A stretch of DNA of 64,000 nucleotides from Escherichia coli (lineage in GTDB: Bacteria > Pseudomonadota > Gammaproteobacteria > Enterobacterales > Enterobacteriaceae). Shown here piece by piece: positions 12,913 through 56,201 of this stretch (the first letter of the stretch is position 1; each line of letters begins with the position of its first letter). The stretch lies in the NCBI RefSeq assembly GCF_022846255.1, contig NZ_AP025682.1. One strand, 5' to 3'. The notes beneath the pieces are model-generated. The model was not told where the DNA came from, searched no databases, and saw only the letters and a list, made by a program, of their open reading frames with translations. Made by a program: the position numbers and the translations under genes.

Positions 12913-12958
12913 CGTTACGGGTACAAATGTAGATTGTTGATAAAGTGCATTTTGTTTA

Positions 12959-14578: not shown

Positions 14579-14655
14579 CCCCAGAAACATCAACGGCTCC
14601 TGAATCAGGAGCCGTCTTATTACTGCATAGCACTTTTTACTGCATAGCACTTTGG

Positions 14656-20163: not shown

Positions 20164-21138
20164 ATGCCAGTAATGATTAGCGGCGTGCTGTACGCCCTGT
20201 TAGCAGGGTTGATGTGGGGGCTTATTTTTGTCGGGCCGTTGATCGTACCGGAATACCCGGCGATGTTGCAGTCGATGGGGCGTTACCTGGCGCTAGGGTT
20301 AATTGCGCTGCCCATTGCCTGGCTGGGACGCGTGCGTCTGCGTCAGTTGGCGCGTCGCGACTGGCTTACCGCCTTGATGCTCACCATGATGGGCAACCTT
20401 ATCTATTACTTCTGCCTTGCAAGTGCCATTCAACGTACTGGCGCGCCTGTTTCCACGATGATTATCGGCACCCTGCCGGTGGTGATTCCCGTTTTTGCCA
20501 ATCTGCTTTATAGCCAGCGCGACGGCAAACTCGCATGGGGAAAACTCGCCCCGGCACTGGTTTGTATTGGCATCGGCCTGTCGTGTGTGAATATTGCTGA
20601 GTTAAACCACGGACTCCCCGATTTTGACTGGGCACGTTATACCTCAGGCATCGTGCTAGCGTTAGTTTCCGTGGTCTGCTGGGCATGGTATGCCCTGCGC
20701 AACGCCCGCTGGCTGCGGGAAAATCCCGACAAACATCCGATGATGTGGGCGACGGCGCAGGCGCTGGTCACGCTGCCGGTTTCTCTCATCGGCTATCTCG
20801 TCGCCTGTTGCTGGCTGAATATGCAAACGCCGGACTTCTCCTTACCCTTTGGCCCCCGTCCGCTGGTGTTTATTAGTCTGATGGTTGCGATAGCCGTGCT
20901 TTGCTCATGGGTTGGCGCACTCTGCTGGAACGTCGCCAGCCAGAGATTACCGACAGTGATTCTCGGGCCGCTGATTGTTTTCGAAACGCTGGCAGGTTTG
21001 CTGTACACCTTTTTACTCCGCCAGCAAATGCCGCCGCTAATGACGCTGAGCGGTATCGCGCTGTTAGTGATTGGCGTGGTCATCGCGGTCAGAGCAAAAC
21101 CAGAAAAACCTTTAACTGAATCTGTCTCAGAAAGTTGA
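20164..21138 (+). CDS. ytfF: DMT-superfamily inner-membrane transporter YtfF (EamA domains)
   Basis: 324-aa polytopic membrane ORF; true start may be the ATG at 20173 (MISGVLYALLAG...). Confidence 0.88.
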   Translation: MPVMISGVLYALLAGLMWGLIFVGPLIVPEYPAMLQSMGRYLALGLIALPIAWLGRVRLRQLARRDWLTALMLTMMGNLIYYFCLASAIQRTGAPVSTMIIGTLPVVIPVFANLLYSQRDGKLAWGKLAPALVCIGIGLSCVNIAELNHGLPDFDWARYTSGIVLALVSVVCWAWYALRNARWLRENPDKHPMMWATAQALVTLPVSLIGYLVACCWLNMQTPDFSLPFGPRPLVFISLMVAIAVLCSWVGALCWNVASQRLPTVILGPLIVFETLAGLLYTFLLRQQMPPLMTLSGIALLVIGVVIAVRAKPEKPLTESVSES

Positions 21139-21196
21139 CACGCTGGCAGTGAGTTAAATAAGCCTCTGCTACGTAAGGGTTATAGCTTTTGCCTTA

Positions 21197-21219
21197 AAGA
21201 TGCATTTAAAATGCATCTT
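21197..21219. promoter_or_regulatory. NsrR operator upstream of ytfE
   Basis: Inverted repeat aagatgcatttaaaatgcatctt 27 bp upstream of ytfE start; matches the known NsrR binding motif form (AAGATGCATTT-N-AAATGCATCTT). Confidence 0.8.
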
Positions 21220-21245
21220 ATCTTATTAAGAATGAGGTATCAGCT

Positions 21246-21908
21246 ATGGCTTATCGCGACCAACCTTTAGGTGAACTGGCGCTCTCTATTCCTCGCGCTT
21301 CGGCTCTGTTTCGTAAATATGATATGGATTACTGCTGTGGCGGTAAGCAGACGCTGGCGCGCGCGGCGGCACGTAAAGAACTGGATGTTGACGTCATTGA
21401 AGCCGAACTGGCAAAGCTTGCTGAACAACCGATTGAGAAAGACTGGCGTAGCGCCCCGCTGGCGGAAATCATCGACCACATTATTGTGCGCTATCACGAT
21501 CGCCATCGCGAGCAGCTGCCGGAGCTGATCCTGCAAGCGACTAAAGTCGAGCGCGTTCACGCCGACAAACCAAGTGTGCCAAAAGGGCTGACAAAATACC
21601 TGACTATGCTGCATGAAGAGCTTTCCAGCCACATGATGAAAGAAGAGCAAATTCTCTTCCCGATGATTAAACAAGGCATGGGCAGCCAGGCAATGGGGCC
21701 AATCAGCGTAATGGAAAGCGAGCACGATGAAGCGGGCGAACTGCTGGAAGTGATCAAACACACCACCAATAACGTCACACCGCCGCCGGAAGCCTGCACC
21801 ACCTGGAAAGCGATGTATAACGGCATTAATGAACTGATTGATGACCTGATGGAGCACATCAGTCTGGAAAACAATGTACTATTCCCGCGCGCGCTGGCGG
21901 GTGAGTGA
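21246..21908 (+). CDS. ytfE: Iron-sulfur cluster repair di-iron protein YtfE (RIC)
   Basis: 220-aa ORF, ScdA_N plus hemerythrin-like domain; matches E. coli YtfE. Confidence 0.95.
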
Positions 21909-21952
21909 TCTAAAAGCTGGATGGCATTGCGCCATCCAGCATGATAATGCGG

Positions 21953-23365
21953 TTATTTCCGCAGTTCAGCAGCCCGCTTCTTACCAATAAACAGCCAGCC
22001 CAGCCCCAGCGCGATAAACCACAGCGGGGTAACCAGCAGCGCCTGGTGGGTGTCATCTTCCAGTGTCAACAACACCAGAACAAACACAAAGAACGCCATA
22101 CATACCCAGCACATCAGCTTGCCGAGTGGCATCTTGTAGATCGACTTCTCATGCAGATGAGGACGCTGTTTGCGATACACCAGGTACGAGCAAAGGATAA
22201 TCGTCCAGACAAACATAAACAGAATCGCGGAAACGGTTGTAATCATCGTGAACGCGCCAATCACGCTGGGATTCACATACAACATCACCACGCCGCCGAG
22301 CAGACAGATACAAGAGAAGGTCAGCCCTTTCGCGGGTACTGCGCGCTTAGAGAGTTTAGCGAACGCTTTCGGTGCCACACCTTCCTGGGCCAGGCCAAAC
22401 AGCATACGGCTGGTAGAGAAGACACCGCTGTTAGCGGAAGACGCCGCAGAGGTCAGCACCACAAAGTTGATCACGCTGGCAGCCGCAGGCAAACCTACCA
22501 ACACAAACAGTTCAACGAACGGGCTTTTCTCCGGGACTACCGAACTCCACGGCGTCACGGACATAATCACAATCAGCGAGAAGACGTAGAACATAATGAT
22601 ACGGATCGGAATGGAGTTAATCGCGCGTGGCAGTGATTTCTCCGGATCTTTGGTTTCCGCAGCTGTTGTACCTACCAGCTCAATCCCCACGAAAGCGAAA
22701 ACCGCTATCTGGAATCCGGCAAAGAAGCCGCTTAAGCCTTTCGGGAACCAGCCGCCGTCATTCCACAAATGTGTAAATGATGCTTCCACACCGGTCGGTG
22801 ACTGAAAGTGCATCGCCACCATGACCAGGCCGACAACAATCAGCGACACGATGGCGACGATTTTGATCATCGCAAACCAGAACTCCATCTCACCGAACAT
22901 TTTTACCGTGGCGAGGTTTAGAACCAGTAACAGAATGATCACGGATAACGAAGCAACCCAGTCAGAAAGCCCAGGGAACCAGAATTGCGCATAGGCGGTA
23001 ATGGCAACCACATCTGCCATACCGGTTACAACCCAGCAGAACCAGTAAGTCCAGCCGGTGAAATATCCTGCCCACGGCCCGAGTAAATCGGAAGCGAAGT
23101 CACTAAAAGATTTGTATTCCAGATTCGAAAGCAGCAATTCCCCCATTGCCCGCATCACGAAAAAGAGCATAAAACCGATGATCATATAAACGAAAATGAT
23201 CGACGGCCCGGCAAGGCTAATCGTTTTGCCGGACCCCATAAACAACCCTGTACCAATGGCACCGCCAATGGCAATAAGCTGAATATGTCGGTTTGTGAGA
23301 TTGCGCCGTAGCGACTGTTCAGCCGGAGCCTGATCATCGGCAACGACTTTTACCTGATCTACCAT
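21953..23365 (-). CDS. cycA: D-serine/D-alanine/glycine:H+ symporter CycA (APC family)
   Basis: 470-aa 12-TM amino-acid permease; matches CycA. Confidence 0.95.
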   Translation of the reverse strand: MVDQVKVVADDQAPAEQSLRRNLTNRHIQLIAIGGAIGTGLFMGSGKTISLAGPSIIFVYMIIGFMLFFVMRAMGELLLSNLEYKSFSDFASDLLGPWAGYFTGWTYWFCWVVTGMADVVAITAYAQFWFPGLSDWVASLSVIILLLVLNLATVKMFGEMEFWFAMIKIVAIVSLIVVGLVMVAMHFQSPTGVEASFTHLWNDGGWFPKGLSGFFAGFQIAVFAFVGIELVGTTAAETKDPEKSLPRAINSIPIRIIMFYVFSLIVIMSVTPWSSVVPEKSPFVELFVLVGLPAAASVINFVVLTSAASSANSGVFSTSRMLFGLAQEGVAPKAFAKLSKRAVPAKGLTFSCICLLGGVVMLYVNPSVIGAFTMITTVSAILFMFVWTIILCSYLVYRKQRPHLHEKSIYKMPLGKLMCWVCMAFFVFVLVLLTLEDDTHQALLVTPLWFIALGLGWLFIGKKRAAELRK

Positions 23366-24511: not shown

Positions 24512-25150
24512 ATGCCCGGGCGCTTTGAACTAAAACCAACCCTGGAGAAAGTCTGGCACGCGCCGGACAATTTTCGCTTCATGGACCCGCTGCCGCCGAT
24601 GCATCGTCGGGGGATCATTATTGCCGCCATTGTATTGGTGGTCGGATTTCTGCTTCCATCTGATGATACGCCCAACGCGCCGGTGGTGACGCGTGAAGCG
24701 CAGTTAGATATTCAGTCGCAATCACAACCACCGACAGAAGAACAGCTGCGGGCGCAATTAGTCACGCCACAAAATGATCCTGATCAGGTGGCTCCGGTCG
24801 CTCCAGAACCAATACAGGAAGGCCAACCAGAAGAGCAGCCGCAAACCACCCATACGCAACCATTCCAGCCAGATAGCGGAATTGATAATCAATGGCGCTC
24901 CTATCGTGTCGAACCCGGTAAAACGATGGCGCAGCTGTTCCGCGACCACGGACTGCCCGCTACCGATGTCTATGCCATGGCGCAGGTAGAAGGCGCGGAT
25001 AAGCCACTGAGTAATTTGCAAAACGGGCAGATGGTGAAAATCCGCCAGAACGCCAGCGGCGTGGTGACGGGCTTAACCATTGATACGGGGAATAATCAAC
25101 AGGTCCTGTTTACCCGCCAGCCGGATGGCAGTTTTATTCGCGCGCGGTAG
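24512..25150 (+). CDS. ytfB: Cell-division-associated OapA-domain protein YtfB
   Basis: 212-aa product from ATG at 24512 ([23 protein letters not shown]...) preceded by AGGAGG; single TM, Pro/Gln-rich linker, C-terminal OapA region. Confidence 0.9.
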
Positions 25151-25781
25151 ATGAAGGGTCAACCAAAAGCCAGCTAAGGATCGTCTCTTTGATGACCTTA
25201 CGTCTGGCTTCCAGTGCCTGCGGTGAAACCATACTGATGTGATAAACCAGACCAAGCGTATGCTGGTTGATCAAATAATATCCCCCAAGCGCAGCAATAT
25301 TAATATTCACCTGCAATGGGTCGATATCTGGCTTAAAAATATTGTTTTTCTTCCCTTCATCCAATAAGGATTCCATTAACTGCAAGTGCGCATGGTTAAT
25401 TTCTAAAAGACGCTGTGACTTTGCATAATGCACACCCTTACTTTGATTTTCACTATGCACAATTTTTAAAAACCAGGGATTAGAAATATAATAATCCCAT
25501 GTAAAATCGATTATTTTCTCAATGGCTTTCTGTGGCGGAAGATCTGAGAAATCAAGGGCCTTTTCTTTTTGTCGAATATCGTTCCAGGTATATTCCAGTA
25601 CTTCGATAAATAAATTTTCTTTATTACCAAAGTGGTGATAAACCGTCTGTTTACTGCACCCCGCGGCCTTGACGATATTATCGACTCTGGCCCCTTCGTA
25701 ACCATATTCGGCAAATTCATTAACCGCGCATAACAGCAGCTTTTCTTTCAGGCTCTGTACGTTGCTGGTATCAAGATACAT
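25134..25781 (-). CDS. ytfA: TetR/AcrR-family transcriptional regulator (intact YtfA), divergent from the downstream operon
   Basis: 215-aa product from ATG at 25781 ([58 protein letters not shown]...) with TetR N-terminal HTH signature; 3' end overlaps ytfB 3' end. Confidence 0.85.
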
Positions 25782-25903
25782 AACGCTTCCCCACGACCTC
25801 TTCGTGGTGACTATCATAACCTGATTTGATTTCAGCTTCAGAAAAAAGGGCAAAAACTTGTACTTTCATCAGGTTATCAAATGTCCTGTGATCGCCATCG
25901 CAT

Positions 25904-25925
25904 ATCAACCAACTAGATGGTTGAT
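25904..25925. promoter_or_regulatory. Candidate TetR-type operator: 8-bp inverted repeat with 6-bp spacer (atcaacca-actaga-tggttgat) in ytfA/operon divergent intergenic region
   Basis: Perfect 8/8 inverted repeat located 69 bp upstream of the SDR gene start and within the ytfA upstream region. Confidence 0.5.
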
Positions 25926-25993
25926 CTTTTTATCCTCCAGTCGCAAGCTAATCATCACTAAGGAAACAAAATTCAAAAAAAGAGAGCTATTGT

Positions 25994-26785
25994 ATGAAAT
26001 CCACTCGTCCTGTTGCCGTGATTACCGGAGCCGCACGTGGTATTGGAAAGGGCTGTGCGCTGGAGCTTGCGCGTGGCGGATTTAATCTGCTGATTAATGA
26101 TCGTCCGGATGCGGATAGCGTAGAAAAATTACATGCCACACAACAAGAATGTCTGGCGGAAGGCGTGGAAGTGATTTGCTTCCCTGCTGATGTGGGCGAT
26201 CTCTCCCTGCATGAAGAGATGCTCGACGCAGCGCAAAACCAGTGGGGACGTCTGGACTGCCTGCTCAACAACGCAGGCATTTCAGTGAAAAAACGCGGTG
26301 ACCTTCTCGACCTCGAACCAGACAGCTTCGACCAAAATATTGCCATTAACACCCGCGCACCGTTCTTCCTTGCTCAGGCATTCAGTAAGCGCTTACTGGC
26401 ACAGCCGAAACCGGAAGCAGAACTGCCGCACCGCTCGATTATTTTCGTCAGTTCCATCAACGCCATCATGCTGGCGATGAATCGCGGCGAATATACCATT
26501 GCCAAAACTGCCGTCTCTGCCGCTGCTCGTCTGTTTGCTGCTCGCCTTTGTAATGAACAAATTGGCGTATATGAAGTGCGTCCTGGTCTCATCAAAACCG
26601 ATATGACTATTCCGGCAACGGCCTATTACGACGAACTGATTGCCAAAGGTCTGGTGCCGTGGGGACGTTGGGGTTATCCGGCTGATATTGCTTCCACTGT
26701 CCGCGCGATGGCGGAAGGTAAACTGATTTACACCTGTGGTCAGGCGGTCGCCATCGACGGCGGCTTAAGTATGCCGCGCTTCTGA
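25994..26785 (+). CDS. Short-chain dehydrogenase/reductase (SDR) family oxidoreductase
   Basis: 263-aa ORF with TGAARGIGKG cofactor-binding motif and YTIAK (YxxxK) catalytic motif. Confidence 0.85.
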   Translation: MKSTRPVAVITGAARGIGKGCALELARGGFNLLINDRPDADSVEKLHATQQECLAEGVEVICFPADVGDLSLHEEMLDAAQNQWGRLDCLLNNAGISVKKRGDLLDLEPDSFDQNIAINTRAPFFLAQAFSKRLLAQPKPEAELPHRSIIFVSSINAIMLAMNRGEYTIAKTAVSAAARLFAARLCNEQIGVYEVRPGLIKTDMTIPATAYYDELIAKGLVPWGRWGYPADIASTVRAMAEGKLIYTCGQAVAIDGGLSMPRF

Positions 26786-26794
26786 GGCTGAATC

Positions 26795-27637
26795 ATGAGA
26801 GATCTGTTACAACGCCCGGATTTATTCAGTATCAATACCGCGACACTGGGCTATAAAACGCCGCTGCCCGCCATTATTGATGCCTGCGCCGCACGCGGTA
26901 TTGGCGCCATTGCCCCCTGGCGCAGGGAGTTGCAGGGTGAAGATCTCCAGCAAATCGCCCGCCAGCTTGCTGCCAGTAACATAAACGTTTCCGGTTTGTG
27001 CCGTAGCACCTACTACACCGCACCGACGCTGGCGGAGCGCAAACTGGTGATTGACGATAACCGCCGGGCGCTGGACGACGCCGCTGTACTGAACGCCGCC
27101 TGTTATATGCAGGTGGTTGGCGGTCTGCCAATGGGAACAAAAGATCTGTACGAAGCACGGGAACAAGTGAAACAAGGGATTCGCCAGTTGCTGCCACATT
27201 CGAAAGAGGTCGGCGTGCCAATTGCACTGGAGCCACTGCACCCGATGACTGCTGCCGATCGTTCTTGTCTGTGCACGTTACGTCAGGCGCTGGACTGGTG
27301 TGATGAACTCGATCCCGATGGCGAATTTGGCCTCGGCGTGGCGGTAGATGTCTACCATGTCTGGTGGGACCCGGATCTCGCCAGTCAGATCCTGCGTGCC
27401 GGAAAACGCATCCTCGCGTTTCATGTTTCCGACTGGTTAGTGCCGACCACCGATCTGGTCAATGACCGTGGAATGCCGGGAGATGGTGTCATCAATATTC
27501 CGTCAATTCGTCGGCTGGTTGAAAACGCCGGATTTAATGGCGCTATTGAACTGGAAATATTCTCACCGTACTGGTGGCAGAAAGATATTAACAGCACGCT
27601 GGATATTAGCGTCGATCGCATCGCACATTATTGTTAA
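26795..27637 (+). CDS. Sugar phosphate isomerase/epimerase (xylose-isomerase-like TIM barrel) family protein
   Basis: 280-aa ORF starting 9 bp after SDR stop, GAGG RBS; family assignment by sequence resemblance to AP-endonuclease-2/TIM-barrel isomerases, moderate certainty. Confidence 0.75.
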   Translation: MRDLLQRPDLFSINTATLGYKTPLPAIIDACAARGIGAIAPWRRELQGEDLQQIARQLAASNINVSGLCRSTYYTAPTLAERKLVIDDNRRALDDAAVLNAACYMQVVGGLPMGTKDLYEAREQVKQGIRQLLPHSKEVGVPIALEPLHPMTAADRSCLCTLRQALDWCDELDPDGEFGLGVAVDVYHVWWDPDLASQILRAGKRILAFHVSDWLVPTTDLVNDRGMPGDGVINIPSIRRLVENAGFNGAIELEIFSPYWWQKDINSTLDISVDRIAHYC

Positions 27638-27646
27638 GGAATAATC

Positions 27647-28423
27647 ATGAGTGACCAACCCGTTCTGTTCAGCAGAGCGGCGGCTTCTTGCCGCCTGACA
27701 TTGAACCGTGAAGATAAATGTCATGCTATTAATGAAGAAATGATCGAATCTCTCGACCATTATTTAAATGAAATTGAAAATGACACGGCATTACGCTTAG
27801 TCGAATTAACGGCAACCGGCGATAAATTCTTTTGTGCGGGCGGCGATATTAAATCGTGGTCGGCCTATTCGCCATTAGATATGGGCAGAAAATGGATTAA
27901 ACGCGGTAATGACGTTTTTAATCGCCTGCGCAACTTACCCCAATTAACCGTTGCGAATCTCAACGGTCATACCATCGGTGGCGGTATTGAACTTGCCTTG
28001 TGCTGCGATATTCGTATCGCTCGCCCCGGCGCGAAATTCTCTAACCCGGAAGTGATGCTCGGCATGGTGCCAGGCTGGATGGGCATTGAGCGAGTGCTTA
28101 ATCAGGTTGGTCCTGTGGTCGGTCGCCAGATGCTGATGCTGGGTAAACGCCTGACGGCGCAGGAAGCTCAGACAGCGAATTTAATTGATGAAGTGGTAGA
28201 AAAAGAACAGGTGGAAAGCTGGATGGCGAACCAGTTAGCGCAGCTGGAAAAATGTGGTCCGGTGGCACTGGCACATATTAAGCAACTGATTCTGGCGCTG
28301 GAAAATAAACACGCCGATTACTCCCACCAGTTACTGGCTGGATTAATGTCCGCCACTCAGGATTGCCAACAGGCGACGCACGCATTTGCCGAAAAAGCCG
28401 GCGTGAGCTTCCACAATCAATAA
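27647..28423 (+). CDS. Enoyl-CoA hydratase/isomerase (crotonase-fold) family protein
   Basis: 258-aa ORF with crotonase motifs (FCAGGDIK; NGHTIGGGIELALCCDIRIA); AAGGA RBS. Confidence 0.85.
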   Translation: MSDQPVLFSRAAASCRLTLNREDKCHAINEEMIESLDHYLNEIENDTALRLVELTATGDKFFCAGGDIKSWSAYSPLDMGRKWIKRGNDVFNRLRNLPQLTVANLNGHTIGGGIELALCCDIRIARPGAKFSNPEVMLGMVPGWMGIERVLNQVGPVVGRQMLMLGKRLTAQEAQTANLIDEVVEKEQVESWMANQLAQLEKCGPVALAHIKQLILALENKHADYSHQLLAGLMSATQDCQQATHAFAEKAGVSFHNQ

Positions 28424-28432
28424 GGAAATTGT

Positions 28433-29974
28433 ATGCGTAAGTTATCAACCGCCGAGACACTGGCGGCGCAAATTCAGGACGGCGCAACCATTGCCATTAG
28501 CGGCAACGGCGGCGGTATGGTGGAAGCTGACCATATTCTGGCCGCCATTGAAGCGCGCTTTCTGCAAACCGGACACCCGCGCGATCTGACATTAATCCAC
28601 TCGCTGGGTATTGGCGATCGCGACAGCAAAGGCACTAACCGTTTTGCTCACGCCGAAATGCTCAAACGCATTATTGCCGGACATTTTACCTGGTCGCCCA
28701 AGATGCAGGAACTGGTGAAAAGCAATGCTATTGAAGCCTACTGTTTCCCTGGTGGCGTAATTCAGGCACTGCTGCGGGAGATCGGTGCCGGACGTCCGGG
28801 GCTTTTTACCCACGTTGGGCTGGGATCGTTTGTTGATCCACGCAATGGTGGCGGTAAGTCGAATGAATGCACTACCGACGACCTGGTAGAACTGATTGAA
28901 ATCGACGGTGAGACCAAACTTCGTTATCGCCCTTTCAAAGTGGACTACGCGATTTTGCGCGGCACCTATGCCGATCCGCGTGGCAACGTCAGCCTCGAAG
29001 AAGAGGCGATTGATATGGATAGCTATTCGATGGCGCTGGCAGCACACAACAGCGGCGGCAAAGTGTTCGTACAGGTCCGCGATGTGCTGGAAGCAGGTAC
29101 CATTGAACCACGTCGGGTCAAACTACCAGGAATTCTGGTCGATGGCATCGTTGAGCACCGCGAACAACCGCAAACCTATCTTGGTGGTTACGACCTGACG
29201 ATCAGCGGTCAACATCGCCGTCTAAGTTCTAACGACGCTATTGAACTGGTTAGTCATCCGGTGCGTCGCCTGATTGCCCGTCGGGCAGCGCGGGAACTGG
29301 TGGCAGGCGCTTCAACCAACTTTGGCTTTGGTATTCCCGGCGGTATTCCTGGGGTTGCACTGCGCGAAGGCGTGCCTTATCAAAGTTTGTGGCTGAGTGT
29401 AGAACAGGGTGTACATAACGGCATGATGCTGGATGATGCTCTGTTCGGCTGCGCCCGTAACGCCGATGCCATTATTCCATCACTCGATCAATTCGAATTC
29501 TACAGTGGCGGCGGTATCGATATCACCTTCCTCGGCATGGGAGAGATGGATCGGTACGGTAACGTCAACGTATCCCATCTCAATGGCAATCTCATTGGCC
29601 CCGGCGGCTTCCTCGAAATTGCGCAAAACGCCCGTAAAGTGGTGTTCTGCGGTACGTTTGACGCCAAAGGCAGCAAGATTGATGTAACGCCTGATGGCCT
29701 GCATATCGCCCAGTCAGGTCAAATCCCCAAACTGGTTACCCAGGTGGAAAAAATTACTTTTAGCGCCGCATACGCACAGCAAAGCAGTCAGGAAGTGCTG
29801 TATATCACCGAACGTGCGGTATTCCAGTTAACGGCAGAAGGCGTTGAATTAATTGAGATCGCCCCTGGCGTAGAGATTGACCGCGACATTCTGCCGTATA
29901 TGGCCTTCCGTCCGATTATCAGGCACCCACGCCTGATGGAAAGTAGCCTGTTTACGCCAATGGAGGATGCATGA
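28433..29974 (+). CDS. Family I CoA-transferase, fused alpha/beta type (YdiF-like acyl-CoA:acetate CoA-transferase)
   Basis: 513-aa ORF with glycine-rich N-terminus (ATIAISGNGGGMVEADHIL), resembles E. coli YdiF-type short-chain acyl-CoA transferases; AAGGA RBS. Confidence 0.8.
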   Translation: MRKLSTAETLAAQIQDGATIAISGNGGGMVEADHILAAIEARFLQTGHPRDLTLIHSLGIGDRDSKGTNRFAHAEMLKRIIAGHFTWSPKMQELVKSNAIEAYCFPGGVIQALLREIGAGRPGLFTHVGLGSFVDPRNGGGKSNECTTDDLVELIEIDGETKLRYRPFKVDYAILRGTYADPRGNVSLEEEAIDMDSYSMALAAHNSGGKVFVQVRDVLEAGTIEPRRVKLPGILVDGIVEHREQPQTYLGGYDLTISGQHRRLSSNDAIELVSHPVRRLIARRAARELVAGASTNFGFGIPGGIPGVALREGVPYQSLWLSVEQGVHNGMMLDDALFGCARNADAIIPSLDQFEFYSGGGIDITFLGMGEMDRYGNVNVSHLNGNLIGPGGFLEIAQNARKVVFCGTFDAKGSKIDVTPDGLHIAQSGQIPKLVTQVEKITFSAAYAQQSSQEVLYITERAVFQLTAEGVELIEIAPGVEIDRDILPYMAFRPIIRHPRLMESSLFTPMEDA

Positions 29975-32043
29975 GTCAGCTTGATGAGGCCATCCTTGAT
30001 GCACTGACACACGTTACTTTCCCAAAGGGTTTTGCACAGGCAGAACCCGCATGGGTTGTCACGGTAGACGGTGTTGATTACCCACTCTGGAAAACAGATG
30101 CCCTGGTAGTCGGCAGTGGTGCAGCCGGGCTACGTGCAGCTGTGGAACTTAAACGCCGCCAGCAAAATGTGTTAATCGCCACCGCCGGGTTATATATGGG
30201 GACATCGGCATGTTCTGGCTCTGATAAACAAACACTGTTTACCGCCGCTACCGCGGGCAACGGCGACAACTTCGCCAAACTGGCAGAGGCACTGGCGAGC
30301 GGTGGGGCGATGGATCACGACACCGCTTATGTTGAAGCGGTAGGTTCTCTGCACACTCTTGGCGGGTTGCAATATCTTGGTCTGGAATTACCGGAAGATC
30401 GCTATGGCGCGATTCTTCGTTATCAAACCGACCATGACGAAGCCGGGCGTGCAACCTCGTGTGGGCCGCGTACCTCAAGGTTAATGGTGAAAGTGCTGCT
30501 GGAAGAAGTACAGCGTCTTGCTATCCCAATGTTGGCCAGTGCAACAGTGATTAAACTGCTGCATCAGCGTGACGAAAACGGTGAAGACCGTGTGGCGGGG
30601 GCAATCCTCGCGACCGGTCATCGCGCCCATAACCCATGGGGGCTGGCAATTGTGACTGCGCCCAATGTGGTACTGGCAACAGGCGGGCCTGGCGAGCTTT
30701 ATCGCGACAGTGTGTATCCACACAAATGTTTCGGCTCGCTGGGGCTGGCGCTGGAGGAAGGTCTGACGTTAACGAATCTGACTGAAAGCCAGTTTGGTAT
30801 AGGCACACCGCGCAGCACGTTTCCGTGGAATTTGTCCGGCACCTATGTACAGGTGATCCCATATATCTATTCCGTGGATGCCGGGGGCAACGAGTATAAC
30901 TTCCTCGCGGATTACTATCGCACCACCCAGGAGCTGGCTTCAAACATTTTCCGTAAAGGCTATCAGTGGCCGTTCCACGCCACGCGGGTAATGGATTTTG
31001 GCTCCAGCTTGTTAGATATGGCAGTAGCGCAAGAGCAGCAACATGGTCGTCAGGTATTTATGGATTTCAATCGTAATCCAGAACCTGTGCCGGGTGACCT
31101 ACCGTTCTCATTAGATCGACTGGACGACGACGTTCGCGCGTATCTGGAAAATAACGACGCTCTGGCACCATCGCCCATCGAACGCCTGCAACAAATGAAT
31201 CCTCTGTCTATCTCGCTGTATAAGATGCACGGTTACGATCTCATCACGCAGCCATTGCAGTTTGCCATGAATAATCAGCACATGAATGGCGGCATTGAAG
31301 TCGATATCTGGGGACAAACATCTCTGCCCGGTTGTTTTGCGGTGGGGGAAGTTGCTGGCACACACGGCGTCACCCGACCTGGCGGCGCGGCGTTGAATGC
31401 CGGGCAGGTTTTTGCTGTTCGTCTGGCGCGCTTTATTGGTTGCACGCAAAAGCGGAATATTGATGGAGATATTGCACAGCTGGCAGCTCCGGCACTGGCT
31501 TCTATAAGAGAGATCATTACTCAGGCGCACGATAACGGGTCCGGGATGCCGTTGTCGGTTGTGAGAGAAAAAATTCAGGCACGAATGTCTGACTATGCGG
31601 GATTTATTTGCCATGCCGATAAAGTCCGACGTGCCACTCGTGATGCCCTGCTATTGAACGAATTTGTCCAACGACATGGATTGGCAATCAAACATGTGGG
31701 TGAAGTTGCCGAGCTGTTTATGTGGCGGCATATGGCGCTGACTTCTGCCGCGGTATTAACACAATTAACGCATTATATTGATGCTGGTGGTGGTAGCCGT
31801 GGGGCGCGTATGGTTATTGATCCACAAGGCAAATGCCTACCACAAACTCGTCGCGGCGCAAAAGAAGAATGGCGTTTTCGCTCTGAACTCGCTGAAGACA
31901 AAAATCACAAATTAACAATTCAATATTCGCAAGGTTCTTTTATTACCGAAGTAAAGTCTTTACGTATGCAACCGTGTATTAACGGTATTTACTTTGAAAA
32001 AAACTGGCCAGACTTTTTAAAGGGAGACATTTACACACAATAA
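29971..32043 (+). CDS. FAD-dependent oxidoreductase, fumarate reductase/succinate dehydrogenase/L-aspartate oxidase flavoprotein superfamily, with long C-terminal extension
   Basis: 690-aa ORF; dinucleotide-binding motif (DALVVGSGAAGLRAAVEL) and C-terminal FAD-binding signature (CFAVGEVAGTHGVTRPGGAALNAGQVF); start ATG overlaps upstream stop (ATGA); GGAGG RBS. Confidence 0.8.
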   Translation: MSQLDEAILDALTHVTFPKGFAQAEPAWVVTVDGVDYPLWKTDALVVGSGAAGLRAAVELKRRQQNVLIATAGLYMGTSACSGSDKQTLFTAATAGNGDNFAKLAEALASGGAMDHDTAYVEAVGSLHTLGGLQYLGLELPEDRYGAILRYQTDHDEAGRATSCGPRTSRLMVKVLLEEVQRLAIPMLASATVIKLLHQRDENGEDRVAGAILATGHRAHNPWGLAIVTAPNVVLATGGPGELYRDSVYPHKCFGSLGLALEEGLTLTNLTESQFGIGTPRSTFPWNLSGTYVQVIPYIYSVDAGGNEYNFLADYYRTTQELASNIFRKGYQWPFHATRVMDFGSSLLDMAVAQEQQHGRQVFMDFNRNPEPVPGDLPFSLDRLDDDVRAYLENNDALAPSPIERLQQMNPLSISLYKMHGYDLITQPLQFAMNNQHMNGGIEVDIWGQTSLPGCFAVGEVAGTHGVTRPGGAALNAGQVFAVRLARFIGCTQKRNIDGDIAQLAAPALASIREIITQAHDNGSGMPLSVVREKIQARMSDYAGFICHADKVRRATRDALLLNEFVQRHGLAIKHVGEVAELFMWRHMALTSAAVLTQLTHYIDAGGGSRGARMVIDPQGKCLPQTRRGAKEEWRFRSELAEDKNHKLTIQYSQGSFITEVKSLRMQPCINGIYFEKNWPDFLKGDIYTQ

Positions 32044-32135
32044 TTTTCAATATTTCCTCTGTACCTGATTTTTATTGCCTATTACATGGAAATACCAACA
32101 ACCAGGGTTTATTAATATAATTAAAAGGTTTAAAA

Positions 32136-33413
32136 ATGAATAAAATAAAGAATTATCGATGGCATATGATTGCCCTCGTATGCTTTATCACTGTAATCAA
32201 TTATCTGGACAGAACGGCGTTAGGTATTGCGGCTCCAACGATTATGGAGACAACCGGAATAACCAAAGAACAATATTCATGGATTGTCAGTGCATTCCAG
32301 TTGGCCTATACATTGGGGCAACCGATAATGGGCTTCTTTATTGATACCGTGGGTCTGAAGTTAAGTTTTGCGATATGTGCCGCAATCTGGGGCCTGGCGA
32401 CAATGGGGCATGCCTTGACAGGAACATGGTCAGGTCTGGCATTTATGCGCGCCCTGATGGGTTTCAGCGAAGCATCGGCAATTCCTGCGGGTGTAAAAAC
32501 CGCATCAACATGGTTCCCGGCAAAAGAGCGTGGCGTGGCGACAGGTGTATTCAATATGGGTACCTCACTCGGCGCGATGCTTGCTCCACCGTTGATTGCC
32601 TGGTGCATTATGTTTCATAGCTGGCAATTTGCGTTTATTGTCTCAGGTAGCCTTGCTTTACTCGCGGCTTTATTTTGGTTCTTTTGTTATAAAGATCCAA
32701 AAGATGCTAAACGCCTTTCTGATGAAGAGCGCCACTATATTGAGTCTGGGCAAGAACAGCATCTTAAAACAGATAAGAAAGAAAAAACGTCAATCAAGCA
32801 TATCCTCAGCCAACGTAATTTCTGGGGGATTGGCATCGCGCGTTTTCTCGCTGACCCGGCATGGGGAACCATTAACTTCTGGGTACCGATTTTCTTCGTC
32901 GAAACGCTGCATTTTAGCCTGAAAGAAATTGCCATGTTCGTCTGGCTGCCTTTCCTGCTGGGCGATCTCGGCTGTTTAGCCAGTGGTTTTGTCGCGAAGT
33001 TCTTCCACGATCGCGGCGTGAGTTTAATTAACTCACGAAGAATTACCTTCACTATTGCAGCCGTCATTATGATGACGATTGGTCTGGTGAGTATTGTCGA
33101 AAATCCCTACATCGCCGTATTACTGATTAGCATTGGCGCATTCTCGCATCAATGTCTTTCTACTGTTGCAGCAACTCTGGGCGGTGACCTATTCAAAAAA
33201 GACGAAGTAGCTACCGCTGTGGGTATGGCAGGAGCCTGTGCATGGAGCGGTCAGTTGATTTTCAACCTGTTTATCGGGGCATTCGTTCACATTATTGGCT
33301 TCGCGCCGTTCTTTATTGCCCTGGCTTTCTTTGACATTATTGGCGCCATTGCGCTGTGGATGCTTATCAAAGTTAAAGACGAAGAACCACAAGTACAGTT
33401 AGCGACAAGCTAA
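32136..33413 (+). CDS. MFS transporter, anion:cation symporter (ACS) family (hexuronate/aldonate-type)
   Basis: 425-aa 12-TM ORF with MFS signature (YLDRTALGIAAP; GxLxDRxG-like loop), resembles ExuT/DgoT-type organic anion permeases. Confidence 0.85.
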   Translation: MNKIKNYRWHMIALVCFITVINYLDRTALGIAAPTIMETTGITKEQYSWIVSAFQLAYTLGQPIMGFFIDTVGLKLSFAICAAIWGLATMGHALTGTWSGLAFMRALMGFSEASAIPAGVKTASTWFPAKERGVATGVFNMGTSLGAMLAPPLIAWCIMFHSWQFAFIVSGSLALLAALFWFFCYKDPKDAKRLSDEERHYIESGQEQHLKTDKKEKTSIKHILSQRNFWGIGIARFLADPAWGTINFWVPIFFVETLHFSLKEIAMFVWLPFLLGDLGCLASGFVAKFFHDRGVSLINSRRITFTIAAVIMMTIGLVSIVENPYIAVLLISIGAFSHQCLSTVAATLGGDLFKKDEVATAVGMAGACAWSGQLIFNLFIGAFVHIIGFAPFFIALAFFDIIGAIALWMLIKVKDEEPQVQLATS

Positions 33414-33422
33414 TTATTTTAC

Positions 33423-33464
33423 ATAGAAACGCTATAATTTAGCTTTGTAGCGTTTCTATTTTTC
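33423..33464 (+). terminator. Rho-independent terminator after MFS transporter gene (possibly bidirectional)
   Basis: Perfect 11-bp stem atagaaacgct ... agcgtttctat followed by tttttct. Confidence 0.6.
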
Positions 33465-33555
33465 TCATAAATTAAACGTCTCTTCCAAAACGTTCAGTAT
33501 CTACTGGCATTGCTTCGCAAATTTATGATTTAGCGAATATATCTAAATAACTATT

Positions 33556-34824
33556 CTAAATTGCCCCCCTGAACGCCTCTGCCATTAACTCTTGCTCACG
33601 ACCAGGTAATCGAAGACGCTCGGCAATGATTCGCCACTGACTGACAATCCCTCTAAAATTAGCAATAATGTCATCTGCTTCTGTCAAACCAAGTCGAAAA
33701 TAATCCACAACTTCTCGAGCTAATTCCAAATCAAGTGCATTATCATTTTCTGTAATATTGAGTTTTAGACCGTCAGACCTGGCAACAGGATTCAAATCAT
33801 ATGCCTCAGAAAGCCGCCAACCTTTTCCCGGTATCAAGATATATCCATGATTACGTAAATGGTCATCGGTATTAGAAACAAGAATATTAAAAACAATCCT
33901 GGACCAGAGTTCCTTAAGGTCAGTATTAGTCTGCGCTCCATGTCTGATAAGAACATCTGCTAATTCCAGATAACTCACACCTGTAGAGGCATCTTCACCA
34001 TCCTGATGCCTGGTTAGTGTCATAGCCGAAGCAAAATGCAGACGCCTTCCCGCATTAGTGCGGTCAAAACGACGAACCATAAAACAATGGTAATTGCTGG
34101 CAAATTTATGCGCCTGAGCAGGTGCAACATTCAGTCCACAGCCAACAGCAAGTGCATTAACGACCATTTCCCATCCACCAACATCATACTCATCTTTTAC
34201 ACTGGGAAATTTAGCGATGTAGAGATACCCAGCTTCATCAACAACACTGGCTTTCGGACGTGTCCCCCCTAATGATCCCCCCGGAGCGATTAGCATTCTT
34301 AACCATTTTTGCCCCATTAGCTCTTTATTATCAGGATCTTCTTCAATTGCCCGGCTAGCCCTTTCCAGACTCGCTATTTCGGTAAATGGTGGGGCTGCAA
34401 CATCAATGCGATTATCAAGAAACTCTCCAGCGTCTTCACGTTTGTATCGAAGAGCCCCAACCCGATAAAGATCATGAACACCTAGTAGATAATCAGACTC
34501 ATAAAGGTGGGAGTCTTTATCACATAACCCGTCTCGAATATCCCTCTCAAAACGACGCTTCATTAGCATACGCCCCCAACGATCCGGGCAGGAATCACTA
34601 AATGCACCAAATTTATCCTTTGGAGGAATTGGGTACTGTGCTCCCTCATACAACATTATTTCAGGATCTAACTGAATGAAATTAAGTGAAGGATCTGCAA
34701 GCGCCTTTTTATCGTACTCAAACTCAAATATCTCACGCGTCCGAGTGCGGCGACTGTGTAAATAACCAATCCGCTCCGGACCATCCAGGCCTTCCCAATC
34801 CGCATACACTCCGATTAATGCCAT
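33556..34824 (-). CDS. HipA-family serine/threonine kinase (type II toxin-antitoxin toxin candidate)
   Basis: 422-aa ORF; HipA N-terminal motif (FSDSCPDRWGRMLMKRR resembles HipA FDNLLPDSPIVRDRIVKRY), glycine-rich loop (IAPGGSLGGTRPKASVV), catalytic motif (LVSNTDDHLRNHGYIL); AAGGAAA RBS; starts 2 nt after upstream HTH gene stop. Confidence 0.85.
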   Translation of the reverse strand: MALIGVYADWEGLDGPERIGYLHSRRTRTREIFEFEYDKKALADPSLNFIQLDPEIMLYEGAQYPIPPKDKFGAFSDSCPDRWGRMLMKRRFERDIRDGLCDKDSHLYESDYLLGVHDLYRVGALRYKREDAGEFLDNRIDVAAPPFTEIASLERASRAIEEDPDNKELMGQKWLRMLIAPGGSLGGTRPKASVVDEAGYLYIAKFPSVKDEYDVGGWEMVVNALAVGCGLNVAPAQAHKFASNYHCFMVRRFDRTNAGRRLHFASAMTLTRHQDGEDASTGVSYLELADVLIRHGAQTNTDLKELWSRIVFNILVSNTDDHLRNHGYILIPGKGWRLSEAYDLNPVARSDGLKLNITENDNALDLELAREVVDYFRLGLTEADDIIANFRGIVSQWRIIAERLRLPGREQELMAEAFRGAI

Positions 34825-34826
34825 AA

Positions 34827-35318
34827 TTAATTTCCTTTTAACGGTTTTTTTATCGGTTTTAATAGTGCTGCAAGAGAGGTTGATGTTTCTCCTGTAATAG
34901 ATGGCGTTGAGCCTTCTGCCAGTGCTGTTAAATCCGTGGTGAGTAAACCTTCTTTCTCATACCTCGTTTGAAAAGGGTCTGTCTGAATACCTTCTTCATT
35001 TTTACCTGATGAACGAGAAAGCCCTCTTTTTTTAATCAAACGGGAATCCTGGAGCTGACGCCCTAAGTCGTCTTCAGCTGCAAGCTTATTTAAATCCGTT
35101 TCCAGGCCCAAAACCTGCATCACAGACAAATATGCCCCTATCGTGACCCCTGCACTTCCTGACTCCAGAGAGCGCAATGTTATTGGCGACATCCCAGCAC
35201 GTTCAGCAACTTGCTTTGCGGTAAGCCTGCGTCGTAAACGAGCAAGTTTCAGCCGCTCACCAAATTCACTAAGCATCTGATTCGTATAAGGGAGTAACGG
35301 TGCTGTTTTTTTACCCAT
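34827..35318 (-). CDS. XRE-family HTH protein, HipB-like antitoxin candidate with ~90-aa Ser/Thr-rich C-terminal extension
   Basis: 163-aa ORF; HTH_XRE region ([32 protein letters not shown]); immediately upstream of and co-oriented with the HipA-like gene; no clear SD at the first ATG, alternative start at Met15 (35276) possible. Confidence 0.75.
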
Positions 35319-35338
35319 AGTGATAATATTTTATCTTT

Positions 35339-35359
35339 TTATGGCTATGATAGCCATAA
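35339..35359. promoter_or_regulatory. Candidate operator: perfect 10-1-10 palindrome ttatggctat-g-atagccataa upstream of HipB-like gene
   Basis: Perfect inverted repeat 21-41 bp upstream of the HTH gene start codon in an AT-rich promoter region. Confidence 0.55.
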
Positions 35360-35664: not shown

Positions 35665-35697
35665 TAAAAGCAAAACGCCGACCACTGGTCGGCGTTT
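35665..35697 (-). terminator. Rho-independent terminator of rpsF-priB-rpsR-rplI operon
   Basis: Stem aacgccgacca/tggtcggcgtt followed on the minus strand by ttttgctttt, 23 bp downstream of rplI stop. Confidence 0.75.
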
Positions 35698-35719
35698 TTA
35701 CGTCTCGTTGAATAACGAA

Positions 35720-40899: not shown

Positions 40900-42651
<1,752 letters not shown>

Positions 42652-55571: not shown

Positions 55572-55997
55572 TCACTCCACCAGCAATAATTTATAAAGCG
55601 GTTGATTCTCTTCAACCAAATCGGCAAGCGTGTAGTTATCCAGTTCCGTAAGAAAACTTTGCACGGCCTTAGAAAGCGCCTGTTTCAACCGACAGGCAGG
55701 TGTAATGTGGCAAAACTCACTGCTGCAATTCACCAGCGATAAGGGCTCCAGCTCGCGCACCACATCACCAATACGTATTGCACTCGCCGGTTTACCCAAG
55801 CGAATGCCGCCATTTTTTCCACGAACAGCAGTCACGTAGCCGGCACGACTAAGTTGATTGATTATTTTGACCATATGATTACGGGAGACGCCGTAGACGT
55901 CAGTCACTTCAGAAATACTGGTCATCCGCCCTTCTGGCAATGACGCCATGTAGATCAGCGCACGTAATCCGTAATCAGTGAAACTCGTTAACTGCAC
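55572..55997 (-). CDS. nsrR: Nitric-oxide-sensing Rrf2-family repressor NsrR
   Basis: 141-aa ORF ([55 protein letters not shown]...) with three C-terminal Cys ligands. Confidence 0.95.
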
Positions 55998-56201
55998 ATC
56001 AACCTCAAAAGGGAAATCGGGGAAAAATACATTTATATTGATGATAAACCAGCCACAAGCTGTGTCGCTAATTTATTTCAGTTCGGGGAAGGAAAAAAGC
56101 GAGGATTTAACACTGTGTCGGATAGCGTAATGGCTTAACCGACACAGCAATGTATCACACTGTTAGCCCGGCAGGCAAAATATCTGCCAGGCGTACCAGA
56201 A

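Follow-up and report, generated by a model that had tools for sequence, protein, structure and literature searches.

A perfect palindrome upstream of ytfE in Escherichia coli and its reading as the known operator of NsrR

The palindrome and its match to the NsrR motif

A 23-nt palindrome ahead of ytfE, in a 64,000-nt stretch of DNA (the window), is almost certainly the operator at which NsrR controls this gene. The site, at 21197-21219, reads exactly AAGATGCATTTAAAATGCATCTT. Its arms (21197-21207 and 21209-21219) were identified by a repeat finder as 11 nt each, 100% complementary and separated by a 1-nt gap, which is the 11-1-11 architecture by which NsrR operators are defined (PMC5320621). 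The 3' end of the operator lies 26 nt before the ATG of ytfE (21246), inside a ytfF-ytfE spacer of ~107-110 nt. The operator is already known, and the regulation that it serves is textbook knowledge rather than a discovery. The features that carry the argument are the following.

21197-21219, no strand: NsrR operator of ytfE, perfect 11-1-11 inverted repeat AAGATGCATTT-A-AAATGCATCTT
21197-21207, plus strand: upstream (left) NsrR half-site AAGATGCATTT, 15.68 of 15.76 bits on an 11-bp half-site matrix
21209-21219, minus strand: downstream (right) NsrR half-site, AAGATGCATTT on the minus strand; contains the G/A polymorphism at 21213
20173-21138, plus strand: ytfF (DMT transporter), upstream neighbour; its stop codon, 21136-21138, overlaps a TTGACA
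21234-21237, plus strand: Shine-Dalgarno sequence GAGG of ytfE, conserved among the 93 aligned loci
21246-21908, plus strand: ytfE (RIC) coding sequence, the regulated gene (NF008221; RefSeq annotation)
55572-55997, minus strand: nsrR, cognate repressor gene, 141 aa, GTG start, stop codon included in the coordinates

When the window was searched for AAGATGCATTTNAAATGCATCTT with three or fewer mismatches, the sole match was 21197-21219, and 0 of 100 dinucleotide shuffles contained any such match. By chance, 64 kb should contain ~0.015 perfect 11-1-11 palindromes of whatever sequence; two others of this type are present in the window, both G+C-rich and located between gene ends.

A total of 27 NsrR sites of the 11-1-11 type have been reported for E. 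coli CFT073 (Mehta et al., 2015; PMC5320621, Table 4). Symmetric weight matrices were constructed from these published sites, leaving out that of ytfE, and the whole window was scanned. On the matrix of the 25 other published sites, 21197-21219 scored 31.45 of 31.59 possible bits, above every one of the training sites (12.2-26.8 bits) and ~14 bits above the runner-up position in the window (17.67 bits). Similarly, it scored 30.32 bits on a matrix of 15 ChIP-positive sites and 32.44 bits on a matrix of six classic promoters (hcp, hmp, ygbA, yeaR, tehA, and the nrfA region). The exact score distribution gives a probability of 8e-14 per position for a score as good as this one, or 5e-9 expected per window. 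The test is partly circular, as ytfE contributed to the matrix by which the published list was itself selected, but the site leads by far too much for this to affect the outcome. The operators of those six promoters share the 11-1-11 arrangement and the half-site consensus AAGATGYATTT with the ytfE site but are more degenerate, scoring 12-27 bits against 31.45 on the same matrix. An earlier note on this DNA had read the inverted repeat as the NsrR motif and had named the motif scan beforehand as the point on which that reading could fail; with a score above that of every training site, and with a sequence identical to the published CFT073 site, the reading stands.

The regulated gene and the gene for its repressor

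The window is E. coli chromosome. Of 5426 complete E. coli genomes, 5416 match the interval 20900-22000, the best being FDAARGOS_536 at 99.9% identity (RefSeq), and the gene order in a RefSeq genome of 99.9% identity is ytfF, ytfE, cycA. The open reading frame at 21246-21908 encodes YtfE, as indicated by a match to NCBIfam NF008221 at 417.7 bits against a cutoff of 254. The window also encodes NsrR, ~34.4 kb from ytfE, in a gene that lies between purA and rnr according to the RefSeq annotation of a near-identical genome. This gene was located first by tblastn; the NCBIfam match of its product (NF008240, 292.8 bits, with the cutoff at 182) and the RefSeq annotation confirm it independently. The encoded NsrR is full length and retains its cysteine motif, as for an intact repressor. 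Its start codon (55995-55997) is GTG instead of ATG.

The closest solved relative of the window NsrR is that of Streptomyces coelicolor (5N07, and the DNA complex 7B0C; E = 5e-19). IscR, an E. coli paralogue in the Rrf2 family, has the same fold as NsrR; its known motifs are unrelated in sequence to the NsrR motif. The window NsrR falls short of the IscR equivalog cutoff (55.6 versus 207.55 bits) and exceeds that of NsrR.

Published control of ytfE by NsrR

The ytfE site of strain CFT073 is the identical 23-mer, lies under a ChIP-seq peak, and has the best PatSer score of that genome (ln P = -25.13; PMC5320621, Table 4). The target gene and the flanking ytfF and ytfE are likewise those of the window, and no difference between the two sites is detectable. 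In CFT073, ytfE is up 69.6-fold in the presence of nitrate-derived nitric oxide (NO) (PMC5320621), and in an nsrR mutant of Salmonella its mRNA is up 544-fold (PMC2884951). NsrR itself is known as an Fe-S repressor that is inactivated by NO, and reviews present it as a direct regulator of ytfE (PMC8593673). In EHEC, a fragment of ~180 bp that extends from ~21078 into the first codons of ytfE drives a reporter that responds to NO (PMC7336997). In the crystal structure of a homologous protein, [4Fe-4S]-NsrR of S. coelicolor on the hmpA1 operator, a dimer is likewise bound to a 23-bp pseudo-palindrome (7B0C; PMC9338935), although the sequence of that operator, AACACGAATATCATCTACCAATT, differs from the ytfE site. 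Occupancy of the window site by NsrR is thus predicted by transfer from CFT073 ChIP-seq on an identical sequence, and the response of ytfE to NsrR and NO in the window is presumed from literature on the same or orthologous sequence. The earlier note had also called ytfE, downstream of the site, a classic NsrR target and had pointed to nsrR in the same window; both statements hold, as does its assessment that the site is expected biology and a useful internal control.

The K-12 ytfE site occupies the same locus, 26 nt before the ATG, and shares 22 of 23 bases with the window (Rodionov et al., 2005, Fig. S2). A single base, A at 21213 where the window has G, keeps the K-12 palindrome from being perfect.

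Conservation across Enterobacteriaceae

Conservation of the ytfE site in six enterobacteria has already been shown (Rodionov et al., 2005, Fig. S2). Here, one genome per species was scanned for codons that spell MDYCCGG, a motif of YtfE, a criterion independent of the operator. The scan returned 120 loci, 93 of which are enterobacterial-type YtfE as judged by the N-terminus, representing ~20 named genera. An NsrR-type site of 23.8-31.0 bits is present 24-27 nt before the ytfE start codon in 93 of 93 enterobacterial loci. Among the other 27 loci, most of them from outside the Enterobacteriaceae, 25 could be scored and none exceeded 8.5 bits; these 27 include a Kluyvera georgiana locus cut off upstream of the gene and a few spurious matches. 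Two enterobacterial loci (Enterobacter wuhouensis and Klebsiella grimontii) were too near the locus end and were left unscored.

When the 93 loci were anchored on the site, the operator was the most conserved intergenic block, at 1.0-2.0 bits per column. Deviations from the half-site consensus totaled 25 in the upstream arm and 99 in the downstream arm among the 93 sequences, a four-fold difference in variability, with the caveat that the conservation and deviation counts come from related species and are non-independent events.

Two enterobacterial-type ytfE starts with an NsrR operator were recovered under unexpected names, one on a 254-nt contig labelled Alkalicoccobacillus porphyridii and one in an assembly labelled Chryseobacterium sp. 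18061. Both are probably cases of contamination or mislabelling in public assemblies.

A second conserved block is found upstream of the operator (21168-21184, plus strand; 1.0-1.9 bits per column over 21175-21184). Its consensus in the 93 Enterobacteriaceae is TGCCCCT-AA-AGGGGTA, and E. coli retains one heptamer only, AGGGTTA, at 21176-21182. The family consensus resembles a 7-2-7 NarL/NarP site, judging from the heptamer consensus of these regulators. If transcription started at about 21219-21220, the centre of the block would lie ~44 nt upstream. A candidate NarP site was marked in the published ytfE alignment (Rodionov et al., 2005, Fig. S2).

Position of the operator relative to the core promoter

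The earlier note had located the site downstream of the likely promoter and ahead of the ytfE start. A sigma-70 promoter scan of 21000-21400 returned 0 matches, and hence none wholly upstream of the site, and the best -10-like hexamer in the spacer lies inside the palindrome; the placement of the site downstream of the promoter is probably wrong. Two -10 candidates come into consideration.

21207-21212, plus strand: candidate -10 hexamer TAAAAT at the operator centre, the best -10-like hexamer in the spacer (7.4 bits), its role inferred
21219-21224, plus strand: alternative -10 candidate TATCTT (in most genera TATATT), its first base being the last of the operator

The hexamer within the site is also the best -10-like sequence in 63 of the 93 species. 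It is TAAAAT in 71, TAATAT in 19, and TATAAT in 3 sequences, such that TAWWAT accounts for 93/93 with T1, A2, A5, and T6 constant; changes within this hexamer break the palindrome, yet these four positions are kept. For the alternative, the AT at 21220-21221, which lies outside the palindrome, is invariant in 93/93 loci, whereas the mirror-image flank is variable. Neither candidate is accompanied by a good -35 element, and a simple sigma-70 model, based on consensus frequencies, did not separate the two and gave no strong promoter at any point of the spacer. No mapped start site or promoter position for ytfE was found in the literature searched, the primary papers being outside its reach, and ytfE is not among the entries in the ROSE paper's supplement. 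Since the operator would lie on the core promoter with either of the -10 candidates, occlusion of RNA polymerase is the mode of repression that we consider fairly likely.

The central TTTAAAA of the ytfE site is nearly invariant, whereas in the S. coelicolor complex the central 7 bp are without base contacts and can be changed freely (PMC9338935). Taken together, these observations fit a second constraint on the operator centre, which could be a -10 element or DNA shape.

Alternatively, the operator could act as a roadblock downstream of its promoter, with NsrR blocking elongation or promoter escape of RNA polymerase that starts upstream, for example from the TTGACA at 21135-21140. This hexamer is a perfect match to a -35 element, and the -10 candidate within the site has only a weak one. 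However, TTGACA lacks a usable -10 partner, with those at spacings of 15-19 bp scoring only -2.6 to 0.0 bits; it overlaps the ytfF stop codon; its columns carry 0.1-0.5 bits among the 93 species; and it is absent from a divergent E. coli strain in which the operator is retained within a spacer 83% identical to that of the window. Moreover, the promoter scan was empty upstream of the site. In the abstract of Bodenmiller and Spiro from 2006, the -10 element of three promoters, those of ytfE, hmpA, and ygbA, is reportedly described as overlapped by the repeat. TTGACA was rejected as the -35 element of ytfE, and a roadblock is considered quite improbable relative to an operator that overlaps the core promoter.

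Protein site versus RNA hairpin

A palindrome of this size could also function in RNA, as an intrinsic terminator of ytfF or as a leader hairpin of ytfE, rather than as a binding site for a protein. A terminator scan does flag the site, with 10 pairs followed by a T-rich tail, and the RNA of 21190-21245 folds at -15.5 kcal/mol (z = -3.15). Any palindrome, however, outfolds its shuffles, and the stem has just 3 G-C pairs. If a hairpin were selected, paired positions would be expected to change together; instead, 42 of the 93 sequences have a broken pair 7-17 (C/A), 27 a broken pair 4-20, and 20 a broken pair 10-14, with no compensatory change, and perfect palindromes make up only 18 of the 93. 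Rather, variation at the site tracks the half-site degeneracy AAGATGYATTT across the 93 sequences. The lack of covariation between paired positions indicates two protein half-sites, with the terminator flag and the fold as by-products of the palindrome. The ChIP-seq data from CFT073, furthermore, record protein on DNA of identical sequence (PMC5320621). An RNA-level role is thus very improbable. The probability that the site is a chance AT-rich palindrome or the target of another regulator is negligible, given that nothing specific speaks for this beyond the AT-rich character of intergenic DNA, that only 5e-9 equally good matches are expected per window, that the position is fixed in 93 loci from ~20 genera, and that published ChIP-seq and genetics assign the ytfE site to NsrR (PMC5320621, PMC2884951, PMC8593673).

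Alleles of the operator within E. coli

The ytfF-ytfE spacer of ~110 nt, with the site, was found in 5416 of 5426 E. coli genomes. The base at 21213 is G in the window, which makes the palindrome perfect, and A in K-12, where the repeat is the imperfect AAGATGCATTTAAAATACATCTT. Allele-specific 40-mers assigned the G allele to 964 and the A allele to 4212 of the 5426 complete E. coli genomes. At the equivalent position in the 93 enterobacterial sequences, 48 carry G and 45 carry A, and either base is allowed by the Y/R degeneracy of the motif as published.

In strain DETEC-E601, a symmetric pair of changes (GTA...TAC) likewise leaves the palindrome perfect. In E. coli GF4-3, from a guinea fowl, the ytfF-ytfE spacer is 83% identical to that of the window, and the operator is retained as AAGATGCATTTAATATGCATCTT. 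The ytfF gene of this strain is annotated as extending ~33 nt further into the aligned spacer, ending ~59 nt, as opposed to ~107 nt, before the ytfE start. GF4-3 is probably a divergent Escherichia lineage filed under E. coli.

Other motif matches and palindromes in the window

The second-best NsrR match in the window is 42485-42507, TAATTGCATTACACATTCAATTT, in the divergent ulaG-ulaA intergenic region. Its 17.67 bits correspond to P = 4.9e-7, so that chance alone would yield 0.03 such matches in 64 kb and about 2.6 in a genome, and the CFT073 NsrR ChIP-seq paper makes no mention of ula genes (PMC5320621). As a further NsrR site it was rejected, its score being borderline and without ChIP support; it is most likely a chance AT-rich match. 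An NsrR-like half-site, AAAATACATTT, is present at 56024-56034 (13.4 of 15.8 bits), 26 nt upstream of the GTG of nsrR. It was not accepted as evidence of autoregulation, as ~1 such match is expected per window by chance and no ChIP peak has been reported there. A half-site match at 12942 is likewise at chance expectation and was discarded.

Two G+C-rich perfect palindromes have the look of terminators, possibly bidirectional. One, AAAACGCCGACCACTGGTCGGCGTTTT at 35672-35698, is directly downstream of rplI; the other, ACGGCTCCTGAATCAGGAGCCGT at 14593-14615, is between paeA and ytfK.

A segment of ~10 kb at 25150-35320 encodes a TetR-family regulator, a CoA-transferase, an oxidoreductase, MFS genes, and a hipA-like toxin with an HTH partner. 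It is complete in only 1645 of 5426 E. coli genomes, with the best match, strain 536, at 99.3%, indicating that the DNA between ytfB and rplI is accessory and variable. The HTH gene that partners the hipA-like toxin is preceded, at a distance of ~20 nt, by a perfect 10-1-10 palindrome (TTATGGCTATGATAGCCATAA, 35339-35359), which may be an autoregulatory operator. Near it, a direct repeat, ATATTTTATC(C)TTTTAT, occurs at ~35326 and ~35419.

Proposed mechanism and implications

When nitric oxide is absent, a dimer of holo-NsrR, an iron-sulfur repressor of the Rrf2 family, would occupy the two 11-bp half-sites and keep ytfE off. The NsrR would be supplied by the gene 34 kb away in the window. The core promoter presumably lies beneath the site, with TAAAAT at its centre and a probable start site at its 3' edge, and NsrR on the operator would exclude RNA polymerase by promoter occlusion. 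Nitric oxide would nitrosylate the cluster and release NsrR from DNA, such that ytfE would be strongly induced. Its product is a di-iron protein that repairs damaged Fe-S clusters.

The biology of NsrR and ytfE has been in the literature since 2005-2006 and is already exploited in NO-reporter strains. The main value of the present analysis is that of an internal control, with a 23-bp operator, its target gene, and the distant gene for its repressor read from raw sequence. The small additions are the fixed position of the operator throughout the family, the absence of hairpin covariation, its probable overlap with the core promoter, and the frequencies of its alleles in E. coli. It is conceivable, if rather unlikely, that the minority G allele at 21213 binds NsrR more tightly and that the variability of the downstream arm reflects lineage-specific tuning of the operator and -10 element. 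If this were true, the G allele would confer a higher NO threshold for the induction of ytfE in the lineages that carry it.
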